Origin: Marispirochaeta sp. | GTDB taxonomy: Bacteria; Spirochaetota; Spirochaetia; JC444; Marispirochaetaceae | Assembly: GCA_963676835.2 (NCBI GenBank) | Contig: CAXXFF010000003.1 | Span: 352,001 to 416,000, forward strand | Direction of reading: 5' to 3' | DNA: 64,000 nucleotides | Shown: piece after piece, positions 46,824 to 57,546 of the stretch | How the letters are laid out: each line of letters starts with the position of its first letter | Numbering within the stretch: the stretch's first letter is position 1 | Notes under the pieces: model-generated | What the model saw: only the letters and a program-made list of their open reading frames with translations | Told to the model about the DNA's origin: nothing | The model's database searches: none | Program-made: the position numbers and the translations under genes

Positions 46824-46946
46824 GCCCAGACCTCCGGAAAACGGTAAGCTCAATACTATTATAAGGCTCAAAAGAAGTATTACACAATTCCAGAAAAATC
46901 ATTACAGCGAAGAGCTGCAGAAAGATGAAATAACATTTTTTAATAT

Positions 46947-47112
46947 CCCGGGCGTCACCCGGCCACATGCTCACGCATGCGGCCGGGTCGGGCCTTGCGG
47001 GGCTCCGGCCCCTGCACCTAAATCCTATATCAGCTATTTTTATATACGAGGGCTCTACAGTAAGGATTTAGGTGCAGGGTCTGCCTCCGGCACCCCTCCA
47101 GTCCCTGACGCG
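46947..47112 (+). repeat. REP-like GC-rich palindromic element containing a 70-bp IR-bounded insert (47010-47079)
   Basis: CCCGGCC...GGCCGGG stem, GGGG/CCCC stem, GGGCGTCA...TGACGC ends; inner 17-bp perfect IR CCCTGCACCTAAATCCT/AGGATTTAGGTGCAGGG. Confidence 0.6.
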
Positions 47113-47246
47113 AAGGCAAGTGTAGAGCTTCTTACATGCGATTTCCCCTGTACAGCCTTCACTCACCTGCATTGCAGTTATTTTACCGGTGCACCGGACT
47201 TTACGAGAACCTCAGCAGTTCCCATCGGCTCCCGCAGGATTACCGC

Positions 47247-50200
47247 TTATCGGGCTTTAATCCCCAGGGGAAAATCATTCCCGAACATAAAAGTTGTTGG
47301 AAATTGAATACTGCTTTTATACCGTTCAGAAAGATTCGGGACCGCCTCGTCTATGTACAAACGCAGACTGGAAGCGGTTATCCTCCCGTCCCGGGTGGCA
47401 GCCTCTCCGCTGATTCCCTGAATAAGCGCATAGGTAAAAACCCCGTGCCCGAGCTGTGCAACCTCAGAGGCAAACTGTTCGTCATTGGTGGCTGTTAAAA
47501 TCACCGAACCGCTGGCCCGGGCAAGCTGCTTCAGGGCGATCTCTTCAGCCGCGCCGCGTACAGCAAAACCTTCCGCAAAAGCGCCGGAATTGCAGGCATC
47601 CACCAGAATCATTTGCTTGGTTGCAGGAATAGCTGAAAGCCGTTCCCGGAATTCGGCAGAGGACAAGCCGTGGGAGAGAATATTGTCGGTCCGGGTCATC
47701 TGGGTAACCTCGGGCAACACAAAATAGAAGCTGTTTTTCCCCTCATCCTCCATGGCTATCCCGTGACCAGCATAATAGAGAACAAACACATCATCCGGCT
47801 TCGAAGATGAAGTTACCTGATCAAGCATGCGTATAACATTTTCCCGGGTCAGGTTTTGTTCATACAGACTGGTTATCCTCACATTCCCGAAAAGTGTGGA
47901 TGAAGCCTGTCTAATAGAGGTCTCAAATGCCTTCGCATCAGCCAGTGCATAATTCAAATTGTATCTTGGATTTTTGTAGGAGTTAGCGCCAAGAATTACT
48001 GCATACAAATCCGGTTTTCCAGAGGAAGAAGACTGGTAACGGGCGGTAAAAGCTGCGGGAATACTCTGGGTTCGTTCACTGCTGAAGGCAACTGCAGAAA
48101 CCGTATTGTCGCCATTTGCAAGGGATATGGTAAAATACTCAACCACAGAGCCGGATGCTGCTGACCGCTGCAAACCTCTTACATTCCTTTCCAGAGCCTT
48201 GTTGTTGAGGTACAGCAGCATATTATCTATCCCCCCTCCCTGATCAACCGCTGTTACCTTTAACTCCAGCTGACCTTTAAATGATCCCGGAACAGAAAAG
48301 AGATTACCCGGAGTTATATATGCACCGTTTTCATTCTTCACTTCAACAGTAACCCTGGGCGGCAGGGAAATCCCGTCCTGTATCGATGCGTTCTGGTACT
48401 GCTGATACTCTTTCCCCTGAATAATAGCCGCCACAATATCAGGGCGGTTATACTTTTCAAAAAACGAGTCTATAGGATAGCAGTTCACACCCTCAACTAC
48501 GTAAATATCATTTCTGGCAATAGAATCGGAGCCTTGAAAATAACCTTCCGGAGTCCAGGTAAGCCAGTCGCCGGATTGCTGGGTAAAAGTGTATGAGAGA
48601 TCTTCCCCTGTCTGAATATTCATTAATTCAACCAGTCCGGAACTATGCGTTCTAAAAACAAGCTTGCTGCCGTCAGGGCTGAGCTCTCCGTAGGAGATCC
48701 AGTGGTACCTTTCAAATTCCCGCTTAATCCTTCCAGTTGCAGTTTCAAGGACGGTAAAGCCTATATCCCGGACAAACAGCACCATTTCACCTGTTCTTTC
48801 GGAAAAGGCTGTCCCATCAATGGTTTGAAATTGAGAAGAAAACTGACTTTTTGAAAAGGAATACCTCCAAATGAGATCTCCGGTCAAAAAGTCGTTGCAA
48901 TATAAAGAATGGTCCGAGGCATTACTATCGCTGCCCCAGAAAAGATATTTCCCATCAGAAGACATACTGAAAATGGCATCGTTACCCGGCGTATTCAGGG
49001 AGTAAGGTAGGGAATTACCCGTAGCGACATCAATCATTCGGTATTTGTTAATGTGCTGACCACTCTGATATTCCTTATAAACCAACCGATTAATTTCCGG
49101 ATGTACAAAAATCCGTCCTTTAATATTTTCTTTTTTCCACAGAAGTCTTCCGGTTGCAGTATCCAGTACTTCTATTGTATCGTTACTGAAGGATTTAAAA
49201 ACTTCATAGCGGCCGTCACCGGTAATGGCTGAGTAATCATTTATTCCAGGCTTTCTATGGGTCTGTACCTGAGCATCCGCATTCCTGCTGATAAGCTGCA
49301 TGCTGTCTGCACTAAATTCCCATTCAACATCCCGTTGCCCAATAAGAATAGATTTTCCATCATCACTGAAGTTGACGTCATAGATATTCTGCATGGTTAT
49401 ACCACCGAGGGATCCTTCCTGATGGCCATTGCTTCTATTCCAGAATTTTATTTCGTTTGTTCTGCTTTTAGTAATCAGATAATTCTGATATTTATCATAA
49501 CAACGAAAATAAATGTTGCTGTCATAAGTATTTGAATGAGGATCATCTGTTTTTACTCTGTAGAGTTTATTTGTTGTAAGGTTGTATCTTTTTAAACCAG
49601 GTAGACGTAAAGTTGATCCTTCATAGAATACATAATCCCCATCTTGGGAATGGATAATTTCACTGATGCTGAGAGCACCAGCGCCACCAATATCTTCCAA
49701 TCGGGTCCAGGTGTTCGTATTCAGGTCCCAAACACCTACATAATGTGTATACGGATTTTCCTGCCTTTCTGTTCCAATAATCTTTGAGAAATTACCAACT
49801 TTTGGATAAATCTCGATACCATCAATCGTTTTATATTCATTTGCCGTAAAAGTGTCTTTGCTCCATCGTTCCAAATAAGTGTTTCCATGTAAGTGGTATG
49901 CCAAAAGAAAATTACCATCATGGTCGCAATCAATAACCTCATGGGTATTCCAGAAATTAAAATCCTTAATCATTTGGCCAGTCGCCGTACTATAAATTCT
50001 TACCCAACTCTGCTTCTGTCCTTTGAAAATGACACCGGTAACAATAAGATATCTGTTGTCATATGAAAACTTAGCCGAAAATGTCCTGTCCATGGGCCCT
50101 TCAAGCTTGACTTCATTTCCTGTTTGAAGGTTTATCAGTGACGATATTTTCCCCCCGCCAAGATAATACATACTGCTGTCAGGGGAAAATTCAATAATAA

Positions 50201-50459
50201 CACTCCCCCCTCCGCTGTCATGTACATGTTCCCGAATACTGGCCCCGGTATTCCTGTAATCCCATAAAATAGATTTATCCCCTCCCCAGGACATCAGATA
50301 TTTACCATCCGGGCTTATCTTAACCAGGTTCGGGGAGCTTGAATGGCCAAGGTTAACCCTTACTTCAGCAGGCGAATTGTTTATGTTCTGTGAATATACA
50401 TTGATTAAAATGCTTATGGAGAAAAAGAGAAAAAACCCCAGTTTTTTATAGTTTTTCAT
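47247..50459 (-). CDS. Secreted WD40/beta-propeller protein with C-terminal caspase-like (peptidase C14) domain
   Basis: Signal peptide; SPDGKY repeats; WLTWTPEGYF; LNYALADA; YAGHG and DACNSG catalytic dyad; GHGVFTYAL. Confidence 0.88.
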   Translation of the reverse strand: MKNYKKLGFFLFFSISILINVYSQNINNSPAEVRVNLGHSSSPNLVKISPDGKYLMSWGGDKSILWDYRNTGASIREHVHDSGGGSVIIEFSPDSSMYYLGGGKISSLINLQTGNEVKLEGPMDRTFSAKFSYDNRYLIVTGVIFKGQKQSWVRIYSTATGQMIKDFNFWNTHEVIDCDHDGNFLLAYHLHGNTYLERWSKDTFTANEYKTIDGIEIYPKVGNFSKIIGTERQENPYTHYVGVWDLNTNTWTRLEDIGGAGALSISEIIHSQDGDYVFYEGSTLRLPGLKRYNLTTNKLYRVKTDDPHSNTYDSNIYFRCYDKYQNYLITKSRTNEIKFWNRSNGHQEGSLGGITMQNIYDVNFSDDGKSILIGQRDVEWEFSADSMQLISRNADAQVQTHRKPGINDYSAITGDGRYEVFKSFSNDTIEVLDTATGRLLWKKENIKGRIFVHPEINRLVYKEYQSGQHINKYRMIDVATGNSLPYSLNTPGNDAIFSMSSDGKYLFWGSDSNASDHSLYCNDFLTGDLIWRYSFSKSQFSSQFQTIDGTAFSERTGEMVLFVRDIGFTVLETATGRIKREFERYHWISYGELSPDGSKLVFRTHSSGLVELMNIQTGEDLSYTFTQQSGDWLTWTPEGYFQGSDSIARNDIYVVEGVNCYPIDSFFEKYNRPDIVAAIIQGKEYQQYQNASIQDGISLPPRVTVEVKNENGAYITPGNLFSVPGSFKGQLELKVTAVDQGGGIDNMLLYLNNKALERNVRGLQRSAASGSVVEYFTISLANGDNTVSAVAFSSERTQSIPAAFTARYQSSSSGKPDLYAVILGANSYKNPRYNLNYALADAKAFETSIRQASSTLFGNVRITSLYEQNLTRENVIRMLDQVTSSSKPDDVFVLYYAGHGIAMEDEGKNSFYFVLPEVTQMTRTDNILSHGLSSAEFRERLSAIPATKQMILVDACNSGAFAEGFAVRGAAEEIALKQLARASGSVILTATNDEQFASEVAQLGHGVFTYALIQGISGEAATRDGRITASSLRLYIDEAVPNLSERYKSSIQFPTTFMFGNDFPLGIKAR

Positions 50460-50863: not shown

Positions 50864-52384
50864 TCAGAGGGAAATATTCCATGGCAGCAATTTTTCCCAG
50901 TTATCAGATTCATTCATGAGTGGAGCTTCCTCAAAAACGCGTCTCAGGTAGTCGTTCGGGTTCACATTATTTTGTTTGGCTGTCTCAATCAGTGAATACA
51001 TGGCACAGGAACTTTCAGCCCCCTTTGGACTACCGGAAAATAACCAGTTCTTTCGGCCCAGAACAAACGGCCGAATAGCCTGTTCCGCGCTATTGTTGTC
51101 AGGTGTCAGATAGGGAGAATCGAGGTAGTGTACCAGTTTCTCCCATTCGTTCAAGGTGTACTGAATTGCTTTCCCAAGCAATAACGAAGGAGGAACCTGC
51201 TGACTGCGTTTTTCAAGCCAGGTTCTAAACTTCTGCAAAACCGGTTCCGCCTGAGATTTGCGCTGGTCAACAAACTGGTCTTCGGGCAATTCCATACTGC
51301 GAAGACGCTCTTCAATTCCATACAGTTTCCTGATGGCATTCAATGCTTCCTGTGCACTTGCTGCTTTCTTCGAGGCCTTTGCAGCTTCATGAAACTTTCG
51401 CCGAACATGGGCCATGCAGCCGACATGGACTATCTGTTCATTCCCCGCCAGGGCTGTACGATACGCATCATAGCCGTCGGTCTGTAAAAAGCCGCTGAAT
51501 CCATCGAGAAGTTCTTTAATATGCCGGGACCCGCGGGTTTCCCGGTATGAGTAAAGCAATCCCGGGTTTTCCGGAGGGCCGCCGCGGGCAAGCCACATAT
51601 AGGATTTCGCCGTGTCAGGGCGTTCCGGTTCTCCGTGTACCTGGACCGGGGTTTCATCCATGTTGATGACCGGCCCTGACCGGATATGCGTTTTCAGTGT
51701 TTCTATTAACGGTTCAATTTTATCAAACGCCGCCTGCTGCCAGTTGCTCATGTTCTGACGGCTTATGTGGATGCCGATTCTTTCAAACCGTTTCTCCTGC
51801 CGGTAATAGGGCAGATGATCGACAAACTTGTTCACTATGATGAAGGAGATCAATCCTGGCGTTACAATGCTTTTAGGGATAATACTTGCAGGGGGATCAG
51901 CAACCCTTACTGCCGGCTTCTCTTCATCCCCGGAGCCTTCACAGTTTTTACAGGCATACTTGGGGCGGATAATCCGTTCCACCCACATCTTCGGGGGGAT
52001 TACCTGTAAGCGCTCGCTGGTCTCTTCGCCGATACGAACCAGCGCATGGCCGCAGGCACACTGTTTTTCTTCTTCGGGAATATCAATGATGATCTCATCC
52101 CGGGGAAGGCTTTCATCAATTGGTTTTCTGCCGTATTTCCTGCGGGGATGGGACTGAACTGGTACGGAAGTCTCTGATGCATCGTTCTCCGAAGTACCAT
52201 TCTCTTCAAGTCCGAACAACAGCGGTTGATACTCATCCAGTTGTTCTTTTTCACTTTTACGGCCAAATTTCTGAAGAAGAAGCAATTTGTACTGCTCTTC
52301 CAAGGCACCATAACGCTGCTCCCAGGAAGTATTAAGTTCGTGGATATAGTCCTGTACTTCCCTGGGAAGTTCTGTAACATCCAT
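50864..52384 (-). CDS. tnpC: IS66 transposase TnpC
   Basis: FGRKSEK, C-x-C...C-x2-C, DHLPYYRQ, MDETP, CMAHVRRKF, DNNSAEQAIRP, GRKNWLF. Confidence 0.95.
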   Translation of the reverse strand: MDVTELPREVQDYIHELNTSWEQRYGALEEQYKLLLLQKFGRKSEKEQLDEYQPLLFGLEENGTSENDASETSVPVQSHPRRKYGRKPIDESLPRDEIIIDIPEEEKQCACGHALVRIGEETSERLQVIPPKMWVERIIRPKYACKNCEGSGDEEKPAVRVADPPASIIPKSIVTPGLISFIIVNKFVDHLPYYRQEKRFERIGIHISRQNMSNWQQAAFDKIEPLIETLKTHIRSGPVINMDETPVQVHGEPERPDTAKSYMWLARGGPPENPGLLYSYRETRGSRHIKELLDGFSGFLQTDGYDAYRTALAGNEQIVHVGCMAHVRRKFHEAAKASKKAASAQEALNAIRKLYGIEERLRSMELPEDQFVDQRKSQAEPVLQKFRTWLEKRSQQVPPSLLLGKAIQYTLNEWEKLVHYLDSPYLTPDNNSAEQAIRPFVLGRKNWLFSGSPKGAESSCAMYSLIETAKQNNVNPNDYLRRVFEEAPLMNESDNWEKLLPWNISL

Positions 52385-52445
52385 GCTAATAAGAATTCTA
52401 GCATGCCGTACATTCTATGTAAATTCCTTTACACCAATAAAATGC

Positions 52446-52793
52446 TTAAGAAACCCGCGAATATTCCAAACTAGTATGTTCATTCCAAAAATCGATGCCT
52501 TTCAACAGCATCGATAGCTGTTCCGGGGTAATCATACGTGCAGTTTCTTCGGTTACGGGCCAGGGAAACTTATGCTTTTCCAGTTTCTTCTGCCAGAGAC
52601 AGAATCCGTTCTTGTCCCAGTAGAGGGCTTTCATAATTCGTCGTTCGCGGTTGCAGAACAGAAACAGATTGCCGCTTAACGGATTTTCATTCATATAGTC
52701 CTGCACCATGACAACTAAGCCGTTGATTGCTTTACGCATATCAGTGATGCCTGGCCGGATAAATATCTGTACCGCTGATAATTCTGGGGTCAT
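52446..52793 (-). CDS. tnpB: IS66 accessory protein TnpB
   Basis: TDMRKAINGL, LFLFCNRER, LYWDKNGFCLWQKKLE. Confidence 0.93.
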   Translation of the reverse strand: MTPELSAVQIFIRPGITDMRKAINGLVVMVQDYMNENPLSGNLFLFCNRERRIMKALYWDKNGFCLWQKKLEKHKFPWPVTEETARMITPEQLSMLLKGIDFWNEHTSLEYSRVS

Positions 52794-53119
52794 TCATAAA
52801 CCCTCAAGGCTGTTAATACTGCTTTAAGCTGGTCATGGTTTGCTGTTACCGGCAGAGTAATAACAATATCGTGCAACTTTATGGTAATGGTTTCTTTTTT
52901 GGATAAATGATGAAAAGAGCTTTTTACTGGTATGAACCGGGCTGCTGCTGTTTCAGAGCCTATTCCGGTTTGTACGGCACGTTTCCTTTCGGCTTTTTTC
53001 CAGCTGTAAAATGTTGTGGGTGGTATTTCGTGCTGCCGGCAATACACCTGCCCGCTTAACCCACTTTTTTCCCAATTTCTGAGATGTTCACTCTGCTGTT
53101 CCCGGTTATATTTGACCAT
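52790..53119 (-). CDS. tnpA: IS66 accessory protein TnpA
   Basis: WEKSGLSGQVYCRQHEI...TFYSWKK HTH; FIPV. Confidence 0.88.
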   Translation of the reverse strand: MVKYNREQQSEHLRNWEKSGLSGQVYCRQHEIPPTTFYSWKKAERKRAVQTGIGSETAAARFIPVKSSFHHLSKKETITIKLHDIVITLPVTANHDQLKAVLTALRVYE

Positions 53120-53409: not shown

Positions 53410-54011
53410 ATAATTACCATTTTACGGTCACCATCGGGGTGTACCCCTCCGGCTTCCTTTGTTCAAGCTACTCACAGGTCAGCAAAGCCGCCTGTTCGTA
53501 TTGAACGTTTAGTGCGTCTATCCTAAAAGGATAAACTATTTTGTTTTTGTCTTTCGACTATAGAGCACATACTCAGTAACTGTTTAATCAGCTCTGAAAA
53601 ACGGTCGGGTCCCCCGACCGGCTTTTCATTCGTCGGGCAGAGGGTAGTCGATGGAGTACTCTCCAGCGACGACCGTAAAAGGAGAAGAAGCACACAATAA
53701 TATGGTCAAGCCTCACGACTAATTAGTACTGGTCAGCTGAACATGTTACCATGCTTAGACCGCCAGCCTATCAACCAGATCTTCTCTCTGGTGTCTTCAG
53801 GGACCTTAAAGGCCCTGGGATGTCTCATCTCGAGGGGGGCTTCCCACTTAGATGCCTTCAGCGGTTATCCCGACCGAACTTGGCTACCCAGCACTTACCC
53901 TTGGCAGGATAACTGGTACACCAGAGGTTCGTCCATTCCGGTCCTCTCGTACTAAGAACAGATCCTCTCAAACATCCAACGCCTGTGGCAGATAGGGACC
54001 GAACTGTCTCG

Positions 54012-54076
<65 letters not shown>

Positions 54077-54077
54077 C

Positions 54078-54117
<40 letters not shown>

Positions 54118-54323
54118 TTTGCCGTCGATATGAACTCTTGGGCAAAATCAGCCTGTTATCCCCGGAGTACCTTTTGTCCGTTAAGTGACGGCCCTTCCAC
54201 TCAGAACCGCCAGATCACTAAGACCTACTTTCGTACCTGCTCGACATGTACGTCTCGCAGTCAAGCAACCTTGTGCCTTTGCACTCGTACATTGATTTCC
54301 AACCAATGCGAGGTTACCTTCGC

Positions 54324-54365
<42 letters not shown>

Positions 54366-54636
54366 CGCCCACCTGACATTGTCCACGTACCCGCTTCAGG
54401 GCACCCGTTAGAAATATAACTTGCAAAGGGAGGTATTTCACCAACGACTCTGCGCAACCTAGCGACCACGCTTCTTAGTCTCCCTCCTATCCTACACATT
54501 ACAAGCCACATTTCAATGCCAAGCTACAGTAAAGGTTCACGGGGTCTTTCCGTCTAACCACAGGTAATCGGCATCTTCACCGATACTTCAATTTCACCGG
54601 GTTTCACGTTGAGACAGCGTTCAAGTCGTTACACCA

Positions 54637-54710
<74 letters not shown>

Positions 54711-55406
54711 TGGGGCTTCAATTCGACGCTCTCACATCTCCTCTTAACCTTCCAGCACCGGGCAGGTGTCAGTCCCTATACTTCATCTTGCGATTTAGCA
54801 GAGACCTGTGTTTTTGGTAAACAGTCGCTTGAACCTTTTCTCTGCAACCCCTAACAAACTTTAACATCCATCGGGGGCCACACTTCTCCCTAAGTTACGT
54901 GTGTATTTTGCCGAGTTCCTTAACGTGAATTCTCCCGAGCGCCTTAGAATACTCATCCCGCCTACCTGTGTCGGTTTGCGGTACGGTCCCTTACAGCATA
55001 TCTTTAGAAGCTATTTCTCGGCACCTTGATCCCACCAGCTTCGCTCGTCCGTAGACTCACTCGTCTTAACACCTCGTCTCAAACTGCGGATTTACCTGCA
55101 GCTCTCAACAACTAAGTGCTTAAACCGGGACAACCATCGCCCGGCCTGGCTTCGCCTAATGCGTCGCTCCATCAGTCCTGTAAGAGGTACGGGAATATTA
55201 ACCCGTTTCCCATCGACTACGCCTTTCGGCCTCGCCTTAGGGGCCGACTAACCCTTGGGCAGATTACCTTAACCCTGGAATCCTTAGGCTTTCGGCGGAC
55301 AGGGATCTCACCTGTCTTTTCGTTACTCATGCCTGCATTCTCTCTTCCATCCCCTCCAGCATCCCTTTCAGGACACCTTCAACAGTACATGGAATGCTCC
55401 TCTACC

Positions 55407-55708
55407 CCCTGCACCTATTTAAAATCACCAGTTATTAGACTATTCGATATTCGTTCGAGCATTTGACGTCTTGCTCGTCCGTCTTTTAATCGCTTTTCAC
55501 GTTTTTGCGCATCAGATTTGCTTAAGTATGCTTCATAATACACTAAATGCCATTCGTCATTTTTTGTGTACGGGCTTAGTTTCCCTTCATGCTCACTCAT
55601 TCGTCTTTTAAGATCACTTGTATAACCAATATACACATGCTCTTTTTGACTCTTCAGCACATAAACGTAATACATAATCTAACCTCGTAATTTTAAATAG
55701 GTGCAGGG
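55407..55708 (-). other. 23S rRNA intervening sequence (helix 45 position) bounded by a 19-bp perfect inverted repeat
   Basis: Lies between CGAAGCTACGG and GGTAGAGGAGC on the rRNA strand; CCCTGCACCTATTTAAAAT/ATTTTAAATAGGTGCAGGG. Confidence 0.88.
55415..55675 (-). CDS. Single-domain GIY-YIG nuclease encoded within the 23S IVS
   Basis: YYVYVL...VYIGYTSDLKRR..EH...YTK...LVYYE...DAQKRE; SD GAGG; same sense as the rRNA; stop TAG lies inside the IR. Confidence 0.85.
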   Translation of the reverse strand: MYYVYVLKSQKEHVYIGYTSDLKRRMSEHEGKLSPYTKNDEWHLVYYEAYLSKSDAQKREKRLKDGRARRQMLERISNSLITGDFK

Positions 55709-55758
55709 CCGTAGCTTCGGTACTATGCTTAGCCCCGTTACATTGTCGGCGCACAACG

Positions 55759-55793
<35 letters not shown>

Positions 55794-55794
55794 T

Positions 55795-55827
<33 letters not shown>

Positions 55828-56323
55828 TCGCCGTTGCACTTCCTTTTCCACTCGAGCATAGTTCTGAGACCTTAGCTGACGGTCTGGGCTGTTTCCCTCT
55901 TGACCACGAATCTTGTCACCCGTAGTCTGACTCCCGCGCATCATTTAACCGGCATTCGGAGTTTGACTGAGTTTGGTACCCGGTGAAGGGCCCTAGCCCA
56001 ATCAGTGCTCTACCTCCGGCAAACTAACGCGAGGCTAGCCCTAAAGCTATTTCGAGGAGTGCCAGCTATCTCCGAGTTTGATTAGCCTTTCACTCCTATC
56101 CACACCTCATCCCTGCCTTTTTCAACAGACTAGGGTTCGGTCCTCCACTTTGTGTTACCAAAGCTTCAACCTGGACATGGATAGATCACTCGGCTTCGGG
56201 TCTACCGCATGCTACTAAATCGCCCTATTCAGACTCGGTTTCCCTTCGGCTTCGGTACTTCTATACCTTAACCTCGCAACATACGGTAACTCGCAGGCTC
56301 ATTCTACAAAAGGCACGCCATCA

Positions 56324-56424
56324 CCCGGCACCTAAATCCCCCAAATAAGCTCTTCGTTTTCGCCTACTTGGCTTGTTTAGCTCTCTAAACACCAAGATTC
56401 TCATCTCAGGATTTAGGTGCCGGG
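56324..56424 (-). other. Second 23S insert/IVS (helix 25 position) bounded by a 16-bp perfect inverted repeat
   Basis: Lies between TACAAGCGGTCAAAG and TGATGGCGTGCC on the rRNA strand; CCCGGCACCTAAATCC/GGATTTAGGTGCCGGG. Confidence 0.78.
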
Positions 56425-57036
56425 CTTTGACCGCTTGTAGGTCCACGGTTTCAGGTTCTATTTCACTCCCCTCCCGGGGTGCTTTTCACCGTTCCCTCAC
56501 GGTACTATTCGCTATCGGTAGCTGTCTCGTATTTAGCCTTGGAAGGTGGTCCTCCCGGATTCAAACAGGATTTCTCGTGTCCCGTCCTACTCAGGTACGC
56601 GCTCAGCGCTCACTCATGTTTCGACTACGGGGCTTTCACCCTCTTTGACCGGCTTTTCCAATACCGTTCGTCTACACTTATAAGTCACCTTTATGCACGC
56701 CCTACAACCCCAGTGCGCATGCGTACTGGTTTGGGCTATATCCCGTTCGCTCGCCGCTACTCAGGATATCTCTTTTGATTTCTTTTCCTCTGGGTACTTA
56801 GATGGTTCAGTTCCCCAGGTATTGCTCATATATGCTATTTTATTCACATATATGTGACAGAGAGTCTACTCTGCCGGGTTACCCCATTCGGTGATCCAGG
56901 GTTCAATAGATGTTTGCTCCTACCCCTGGCTTTTCGCAGCTTACCACGACCTTCTTCGCCGGACAGCTCCAAGGCATCCTCCGTGGACCCTTATTCGCTT
57001 GACCATATTAGTTTGTGCTCCTTCTTTGGCGGTTGC

Positions 57037-57066
57037 CCCTGCACTAAATTATTATTTAGTGCAGGG
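57037..57066. repeat. Minimal hairpin copy of the same IR family in the rRNA spacer
   Basis: CCCTGCACTAAAT-TATT-ATTTAGTGCAGGG. Confidence 0.7.
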
Positions 57067-57294
57067 TCTCCCTTGGTGCTGTTGCGCAGTCTCAGAGTCG
57101 GCAAAGCCGCTCTTCGCTGCACGAAAGTCATCAAGAGTGTAGTCGCAGTTGCCCGCTAAACTACATTCGCAACCATCCCGAAACTCCCCTTTATGATGCA
57201 ACTACTTCCCATTTCGTTACACCGGTATGTTCCGGTTCTCTATGTCAAAAGATCGAAAAAAAATAACCTAAGTTTAAAACTTTGGTTATTGTTA

Positions 57295-57368
<74 letters not shown>

Positions 57369-57546
57369 GGATATATAAAGATAAGGGCGAAGATTTCCGC
57401 TTATTAAAAAGCAAGTTTACCTTGTATGTTTCATACTTATCCCGTCTGTATCCCATTTACAAAAGCTTTGTCAGACTTGCGTCTTAAAAAGCATCCGCTC
57501 AGCTTTAATGCTGATTGAGAACTATTCGTTCCAGTTCCCTTCTCGT

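Follow-up and report, generated by a model that had tools for sequence, protein, structure and literature searches.

One of the four 23S rRNA genes in this Marispirochaeta genome carries, at helix 45, a 302-bp insert in which 22-nt arms enclose a ribosome-binding site and one ORF. The insert stands in place of a host hairpin without target duplication, its ends recur at gene-less hairpins elsewhere in the genome and the genus, and the ORFs of its family are under purifying selection. We consider it probable that the insert is a gene-carrying member of a group of tiny mobile cassettes that replace hairpins, and that its nuclease, by analogy with Ssn, would cut hairpin or single-stranded DNA. 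An earlier, sequence-only reading had described the insert as an intervening sequence (IVS) with a nuclease gene that might spread by homing; it missed that the insert belongs to a shared-end family with gene-less copies in the same operon, at helix 25 and in the spacer. Positions below refer to the window, the whole stretch of 64,000 nucleotides that was analysed.

Anatomy and assembly support of the helix 45 insert

Rfam matches place an rRNA operon in the window, with 16S, tRNA-Ile, 23S and 5S genes all on the minus strand (Table 1). About 1.2 kb into its 23S gene lies the insert, at a position which we take to be helix 45 from this distance and from flanking landmarks. The insert site is a plain hairpin in the other three 23S genes, and comparison with these empty copies defines the boundaries: 299 bases stand for 17 host bases at the tip of the helix, there is no target duplication, and the bases shared at the junctions number one on the left and three on the right. 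The AT-rich character and extent proposed earlier are borne out, with a GC content of 37% in the insert and about 50–55% in the flanking rRNA.

Table 1. Coordinates in the window of the host gene, the helix 45 cassette and its parts, and gene-less hairpins with the same ends
Feature	Position	Length	Strand	Basis or remark
Host 23S rRNA gene	53702..57004		(-)	Rfam RF02541; one of four genome copies
Hairpin cassette at helix 45	55407..55708	302 bp	(-)	Comparison with three empty copies
Left arm, opening with the family end motif CCCTGCACC	55687..55708	22 nt	(-)	Fold; motif statistics
GAGG ribosome-binding site, 7 nt before ATG	55683..55686		(-)	Sequence; 16S tail; pairing probabilities
Single-domain GIY-YIG ORF, Slx1/UPF0213 type, rRNA sense	55415..55675	86 aa	(-)	
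Right arm, containing the last codons and the TAG stop	55407..55428	22 nt	(-)	
Gene-less insert with the same ends, 23S helix 25	56324..56424	101 bp	(-)	All four operons; z -9.0
Gene-less hairpin with the same ends, spacer just before 23S	57037..57066	30 bp	(.)	This operon only
Gene-less hairpin with the same ends, in a four-copy intergenic repeat	47010..47079	70 bp	(.)	

The ORF takes up 261 of the 302 bases and leaves 41 non-coding; its orientation in rRNA sense, its GAGG, which is able to pair with the host 16S tail, and its TAG stop within the inverted repeat are as first described. When the insert is folded as RNA, a 22-pair terminal stem closes it (z -9.5), and none of 100 shuffles was as stable. 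We found no promoter or terminator belonging to the cassette between 55300 and 55900, and no intron family reached the Rfam cut-off in the window, on which ground a group I or group II intron was rejected. The insert has two features that define an IVS: it is an extra stem-loop, here at helix 45, that is absent from other copies and relatives, and it is not a self-splicing intron, given the absence of an Rfam intron match and the share of its length that is coding.

Several features could point to an assembly artefact or a chimera with foreign DNA: the insert is present in a single copy, its closest relatives lie mostly in CPR genomes, and one of two public runs from the same study contains the empty helix 45 allele only. 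We regard such an origin as very improbable. In the other run, a 359-bp contig shows 0 differences from the insert and its two junctions at a depth of 4.9, about that of a single copy, where the empty allele has a depth of 19.4 and the insert operon's own spacer 6.8. The support that this contig lends is modest, because it extends 28–29 bases past each junction, below the 31-base bar for a bridge, and because the run may be the source sample. The run with only the empty allele does not contain this operon's spacer either, and its blank on the insert is therefore uninformative. Of 24 public runs listed in a search, a single one contained at least half of the sequence words, and two RNA runs (X4, X5) leave the insert uncovered and seem to come from other organisms. 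In addition, the ends of the insert match those of 17 other hairpins in the genome, and a congener has an equivalent cassette.

The spacer of the operon is of the tRNA-Ile type, and the other three operons share a different one, judged by its letters to be of the tRNA-Ala type. The operon is also set apart from the other three by substitutions of its own: the first 605 bases of 23S contain seven, of which four recur in the congener G004. Its differing tracts span 57010–57440 and 56400–56676. The substitutions that recur in G004 show exchange between copies or lineages. Over the 690 bases before the insert, the gene is identical to the empty copies, from which it follows that no foreign rRNA tract accompanied the insert. 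A complete-looking IS66 with three ORFs (50864–53119, minus strand) begins some 180 bases beyond the 5S gene of the operon, and a 1070-aa WD40/beta-propeller protein with a C-terminal caspase domain is encoded at 47247–50459 (minus strand).

The encoded protein is a single GIY-YIG domain

The 86-aa product matches PF01541 with 54.8 bits against a cut-off of 22.6 (E 1.2e-14), which upholds the GIY-YIG assignment made from the letters. No IVP family is among its four Pfam matches; a four-helix-bundle or S23p ORF was rejected on this basis, in agreement with the earlier view that a nuclease-family gene takes the place of the usual one. The protein has the two Tyr motifs, central Arg, His, C-terminal Glu and three-strand fold of the superfamily. 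The Tyr, Arg, His and Glu residues that had been called intact are invariant in an alignment of 65 relatives, picked from those with strong arms, in which Y5, Y15, G17, R25, H29, Y46, R59, E60 and K64 do not vary. These conserved residues predict that the protein is an active nuclease.

By sequence, the closest solved relatives are the UPF0213 proteins 1zg2 and 1ywl, which a phylogenomic study (PMC1564403) places in the Slx1 lineage, apart from the homing endonucleases. The structure model consists of one domain with a mixed alpha/beta fold (pLDDT 88); its best structural matches are 1zg2, HIGLE and Slx1, with I-TevI (E 0.8) and UvrC ranking lower. TIGR01453, a model of intron endonucleases, scores 15.2 bits against its cut-off of 56.05, and the DNA-binding extension is absent. 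Neither tblastn nor a profile search found a second gene of this GIY-YIG family in the genome.

Both the ribosome site and the AUG are predicted to be paired in the stem of the insert, all but one position with a probability above 0.8. Across the family, the mean pairing is 0.71 in the start region and 0.56 inside the ORF. Predicted pairing of this kind argues against strong expression. A gene for RNase III is present in the genome, and the long stem of the insert is a plausible substrate for it.

Gene-less hairpins share the ends of the cassette

Three 7-mers that fit the end motif of the cassette are the most frequent ones at the ends of the 682 perfect inverted repeats in the genome. When the genome was scanned for hairpins with cassette ends, 18 were found, compared with 0–1 for each of 30 permuted motifs; the test pattern was slightly broader than the control patterns. 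Because MITE and rRNA copies multiply one event, these 18 reduce to about eight independent contexts. One of the hairpins in the window belongs to an intergenic repeat that is found at about 46940–47115 and in three more genome copies, with a hairpin of 69–70 bp; two copies were scanned and neither has an Rfam match. No public-run contig covers the helix 25 insert, and such holes prove nothing.

Helix 25 shows empty, filled and reduced states among the congeners. It is empty in G003, in all three copies of G004 and in three of the four copies of G005, and the gene-less form occupies one of four copies in G005 and all four in the present genome. G002 has a full 305-bp cassette there, with a GIY-YIG ORF 51% identical to that of the window and ends of a second type. 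The genus thus displays every stage at one helix, from the empty site through the full cassette with its nuclease gene to the gene-less remnant. Elsewhere, genome G155 has a cassette in both 23S copies found. In genome G390, one 23S copy contains the complete cassette and the other a form shortened by deletion that keeps the same ends. The second G155 copy of the cassette (L209) differs by several small indels that extend into the flanking rRNA and reflect either decay or sequencing error.

Replacement is also seen at sites outside rRNA. A MITE-like repeat of 165 bp, with terminal inverted repeats of its own and an exchangeable central hairpin, occurs in 27 regions of the genome (e.g. C1:401338–401540). 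At one and the same spot, its centre is native in eight regions, has the first cassette end type in eight and the second in three; two regions are centre-deleted and the remaining six are partial. The ancestral form of the centre was assigned by parsimony. The second end type is that of the full GIY-YIG cassette in helix 25 of G002. Hairpins with cassette end types also stand in place of host hairpins in the spacer before 23S and, in congeners, in RNase P RNA, in an FMN riboswitch (G005) and in a ribosomal-protein leader, which we take to be that of L11 from the start of the downstream ORF. No target duplication was seen at the replaced hairpins, and inspection by eye revealed no shared target sequence around them. 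Also in G005, a Flavo-1 RNA match runs into the end of a gene-less hairpin (L221:1535–1604).

In rRNA, the bias toward helix tips may result from selection instead of targeting. Two separate replacements at one MITE hairpin, where there is no rRNA fold to save, suggest that DNA hairpins are targeted as such, beyond the effect of selection alone.

Sites, ends and selection in the wider family

The family set consists of the best 80 of 256 relatives from genomes together with the best 80 of 309 from metagenomes. These 160 loci encode 143 distinct proteins, which are 42–58% identical to the window protein and come mostly from CPR bacteria where the source is named. Within this fetched set, 27 of the 143 lie in rRNA (at nine helices), nine in RNase P RNA, seven at DnaA-box-like motifs and 31 beside tRNAs, with 40 elsewhere with arms and 29 elsewhere without. 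Helix names here are presumptive, assigned by position in the usual numbering. More than a third of the 143 are without strong arms, including 25 of those beside tRNAs and the 29 that have neither arms nor an RNA-gene neighbour. The RNase P location was confirmed by Rfam for six of the seven candidates tested; the gathering threshold missed interrupted RNase P genes (20 loci), and the E-value mode detected six.

Where arms are present, they define a compact unit. Strong inverted arms lie tight around the ORF in 37 of the best 80 of 256 relatives and in none of 300 swapped-flank controls. The 86 strong-arm cassettes of the fetched set have a median length of 303 bp, and in 79 of them the right arm is at or next to the stop codon. 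At the outer end of the left arm, CCN(1-2)CAC occurs in 49 of the 86 (shuffle mean 7.1, maximum 16, in 1000 shuffles) and in reverse reading in only one; the motif is absent from 37. All 30 cassettes in rRNA are read in rRNA sense.

Among 400 other genomes of the host phylum, 17 have a match at E 1e-8 or better, and two contain cassettes in 23S, at other helices (L108, L109). None of the 143 distinct fetched relatives is located at helix 45, and neither the 160 collection loci nor 21 other phylum loci yielded a further helix 45 cassette. Among seven genomes of the order and 401 of the phylum, the helix-45-plus-end pattern, searched with zero mismatches in genomes many of which may be without assembled rRNA, was found only here.

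Individual relatives occupy a wide range of settings. Seven cassettes (L031, L035, L037, L038, L040, L043, L204) lie beside or between motifs that resemble DnaA boxes, and these neighbourhoods are possibly CPR replication origins. Three others (L015, L017, L034) are flanked by ATG on both sides and look like insertions into a start codon, with a possible 3-bp duplication. Armless relatives (L004, L020, L044, L053, L054, L056, L064, L072, L078, L080 and others) end a few bases from the 5′ ends of tRNAs of many kinds, and one relative (L057) lies about 70 bases before a tmRNA. An RNase P RNA gene that carries its cassette antisense (L005:333–902) has a further long extra segment, and four cassettes (L016, L029, L041, L151; Omnitrophota, Planctomycetales and a metagenome contig) lie within arrays of a short, repeated motif.

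ORF decay in relatives, which the earlier reading listed together with a lack of translation as a refuting outcome, is not what the family shows; its ORFs are under purifying selection. In all 31 pairs of family ORFs that were compared, pN is lower than pS, and dN/dS is 0.04–0.31 in the 18 pairs that are unsaturated and hence computable, including 0.06–0.31 in five same-site rRNA pairs. The family proteins are thus probably made and matter, inside rRNA too. It follows that translation from host transcripts is likely, so that this part of the earlier proposal, that the nuclease is read from rRNA transcripts, gains ground, while the predicted pairing of the start speaks against strong expression.

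A tree of 161 rows and 87 columns, built by a quick method and weak (22 of 158 branches starred), requires 65 site changes, where the minimum is 16 and the mean for shuffled labels is 100. The count speaks for many moves; site labels are also more clustered than by chance, which fits long residence better than frequent jumping. The quick tree cannot place the window protein (group support 80), and for this reason we name no donor. Among the fetched relatives, no near-identical cassette was found at two different sites, the closest protein being 58–61% identical.

Homing, host function and RNA-level action

The sequence-only reading had suggested a homing-like spread. In site-specific homing, the nuclease would recognize and cut empty helix 45 duplex DNA, and gene conversion would copy the insert into other operons. 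Some of the data have the form that homing would give. Same-site rRNA pairs keep the low dN/dS that repeated homing cycles predict, site labels cluster on the tree, and occupied sites can be shared by operons of a genome, as with the gene-less helix 25 insert, present in all four operons here and one of four in G005, and the G155 cassette in both copies found. For helix 45 itself, the proposal is not supported. Three alleles in this very genome are empty, as are nine of nine assembled helix 45 copies in four congeners, and the helix-45-plus-end pattern is unique to this genome in the order and phylum sets, whose genomes may not all have an assembled, matching 23S. The protein is a lone domain that lacks an extension for recognizing a long target, falls far below the TIGR01453 cut-off (15 against 56) and resembles Slx1 and UPF0213 more than I-TevI. 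Homing would also leave the same ends at unrelated hairpins unexplained. We judge homing at helix 45 to be unlikely. Any cutting at helix 45 would concern one of four operons only; the helix 25 insert is in all four.

Purifying selection fits a benefit to the host equally well. The gene could encode a small repair or recombination nuclease, with the hairpins as its binding sites or by-products, and could have arrived at helix 45 through some rare accident together with horizontal exchange of rRNA. SsnA has a host role of this sort, modulating transformation in Neisseria (PMC11893778), and the seven differences in the first 605 bases of the 23S gene, four of them common to G004, do record exchange. 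Against this, the family gene was not found in three of the four congeners searched, and the family occupies dozens of unrelated sites and leaves deletion footprints; the identity of the 690 bases before the insert to the empty copies also speaks against its arrival with foreign rRNA. A host-serving or passive gene thus seems an unlikely account.

An action on RNA is less likely again. On this account a maturase-like protein would bind or cut the RNA stem of its own insert and aid its removal, the DNA moving by other means, and the concentration of cassettes in stable-RNA genes, with rRNA sense in 30 of 30, is what it would predict. RNase III is present, however, and according to PMC4990558 it suffices for the helix 45 insert of Coxiella; SsnA is described in PMC11893778 as inactive on RNA. 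The cassette of L005 runs antisense to the RNase P RNA gene that it occupies, and there are also cassettes at DnaA-box-like motifs and in the MITE. We therefore hold RNA-level function to be improbable.

A model for hairpin replacement

In the model that we prefer, the cassette replaces hairpins in DNA and is tolerated in RNA. Its ORF would be read from host transcripts, since no promoter-like site was found, and only weakly, since the start is predicted to be paired in the stem. In RNA, the arms would rebuild the host helix and RNase III would probably excise the insert without ligation, and by these two effects the ribosome could tolerate it. In DNA, the arms would pair only in single strands or cruciforms, and there the nuclease may nick the cassette stem and host hairpins. 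Host repair, using a few bases of microhomology, would then copy the cassette in place of a host hairpin. Later internal deletion could leave gene-less footprints resembling classical short IVSs, and recombination between operons and strains may spread the occupied site, which would be the homing-like part of the process; homing-like maintenance is consistent with the selection seen at fixed sites and with the clustering on the tree. Nicking and copying-in by repair are the weakest steps of the model. The action on hairpin or single-stranded DNA is proposed from the likeness to SsnA, and a nuclease with no joining activity is an unproven mobiliser.

A broader proposal can be put forward tentatively, and we give it somewhat less than even weight. 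The cassettes may represent a new minimal class of mobile DNA, in which a lone GIY-YIG protein of ~85 residues would mobilise a 300-bp cassette by recognizing hairpins by structure and replacing them with its own stem. Such elements could colonise helices of rRNA, RNase P RNA, riboswitches and leaders without breaking the fold, each end type would have its own nuclease, and their footprints might be the origin of many classical helix 25 and helix 45 IVSs.

How IVSs enter and spread among bacterial rRNA genes has long been open because most of them carry no gene or one for a protein of unknown function. From the present genome come one candidate enzyme, its probable recognition ends, and several pairs of filled and empty targets. 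If the model is true, it describes a route of mobility by exchange of hairpins and not by insertion at a sequence, places another family of very small nucleases with hairpin specificity alongside Ssn, with possible use as tools, and explains the origin of some long-puzzling rRNA intervening sequences.

Comparison with known systems

With the classical 23S IVSs of Coxiella and Leptospira, which lie at helix 25 or 45 and may or may not contain an ORF for the four-helix-bundle protein S23p, the insert shares the helix 45 position, a long closing stem, an ORF in rRNA sense, patchy spread and, probably, RNase III excision without ligation. It differs in that its ORF encodes a nuclease domain and not S23p, and in that its ends are those of a family whose members reach far beyond 23S. 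In the account of PMC4990558, the Coxiella helix 45 insert is excised by RNase III and its S23p is not made in vivo and is decaying, whereas the family ORFs described here are conserved.

For CPR bacteria, the literature already contains GIY-YIG ORFs within rRNA inserts that are not introns. The text of PMC11270868 reports 30 of them (15 in 16S and 15 in 23S). The inserts do not resemble group I or II introns, and the ORFs are thinly scattered across several sites and placed outside homing. Since the closest relatives of the window protein are largely such CPR cases, these inserts are probably the same family, and a helix 45 case may be among the 15 ORFs in 23S. The present host is not a CPR bacterium, and as far as the text of that report goes, it does not treat arms, end motif, replacement anatomy, gene-less footprints, non-rRNA sites or tests of the GIY-YIG proteins. 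A literature search, outside of which lay subscription journals, bioRxiv supplements and the per-site tables and figures of the CPR report, turned up the CPR and Ssn reports but no description of GIY-YIG cassettes that replace hairpins, of their arms and end motif, or of the footprints.

Among GIY-YIG proteins, the best sequence and fold matches are the minimal stand-alone domains of Slx1, HIGLE and UPF0213 (PDB 1zg2, 1ywl, 7wme, 6seh). These are not described as cargo of hairpin cassettes, and the activity of the present protein is predicted. Homing endonucleases of the I-TevI type have the same catalytic fold and a location inside a host gene in common with it; here, by contrast, there is no intron, the non-coding part amounts to 41 bases, a DNA-binding domain is missing, and the family occupies many unrelated sites. 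Membership in that type was rejected on the single 86-aa domain, the TIGR01453 score (15.2 against 56.05 bits) and the distribution of relatives over nine rRNA helices and other loci.

In IS200/IS605, REP/RAYT and IS/MITE pairs, a gene-carrying copy is accompanied by gene-less hairpin copies. The cassettes resemble these systems in that terminal inverted repeats are common to gene-carrying and gene-less copies, and in their likely action on single-stranded hairpins. They differ in the lack of an HUH or DDE enzyme, in replacing the hairpin instead of interrupting it, and in the absence of target duplication. A classical IS was rejected: GIY-YIG is the only ORF, and no DDE, HUH, serine or tyrosine transposase is encoded. 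Nor is there the target duplication or clean insertion that marks an IS, the hairpin being replaced at helix 45, at helix 25 and in the MITE centre, with the possible ATG duplication in three distant relatives as an exception.

A further parallel is to Ssn (cd10448), likewise a single-domain GIY-YIG protein of about 90 aa, flanked by hairpin-forming repeats (NTS/SRM) that also stand alone in the genome. According to PMC11893778, SsnA acts on single-stranded DNA, which it binds and cleaves at its own hairpin repeat, and does not act on duplex DNA or RNA, and the authors propose that the Ssn/repeat system resembles a mobile element. The window protein is 43% identical over 69 aa to an SRM-flanked protein. 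A loosened SRM pattern was found in four of the 11 rows of a separate starred clade and in none of the 154 other rows, nor in the window. We rejected membership in Ssn by repeat and by clade, there being no SRM near the ORF and the SRM-flanked proteins forming their own starred clade. The architecture also differs, in that each SRM is a hairpin by itself and the two arms described here pair with each other around the gene; rRNA and tRNA go unmentioned in the main text of PMC11893778. At the RNA level, the cassette would behave like an IVS, and at the DNA level it probably works like a system of the Ssn/REP type.
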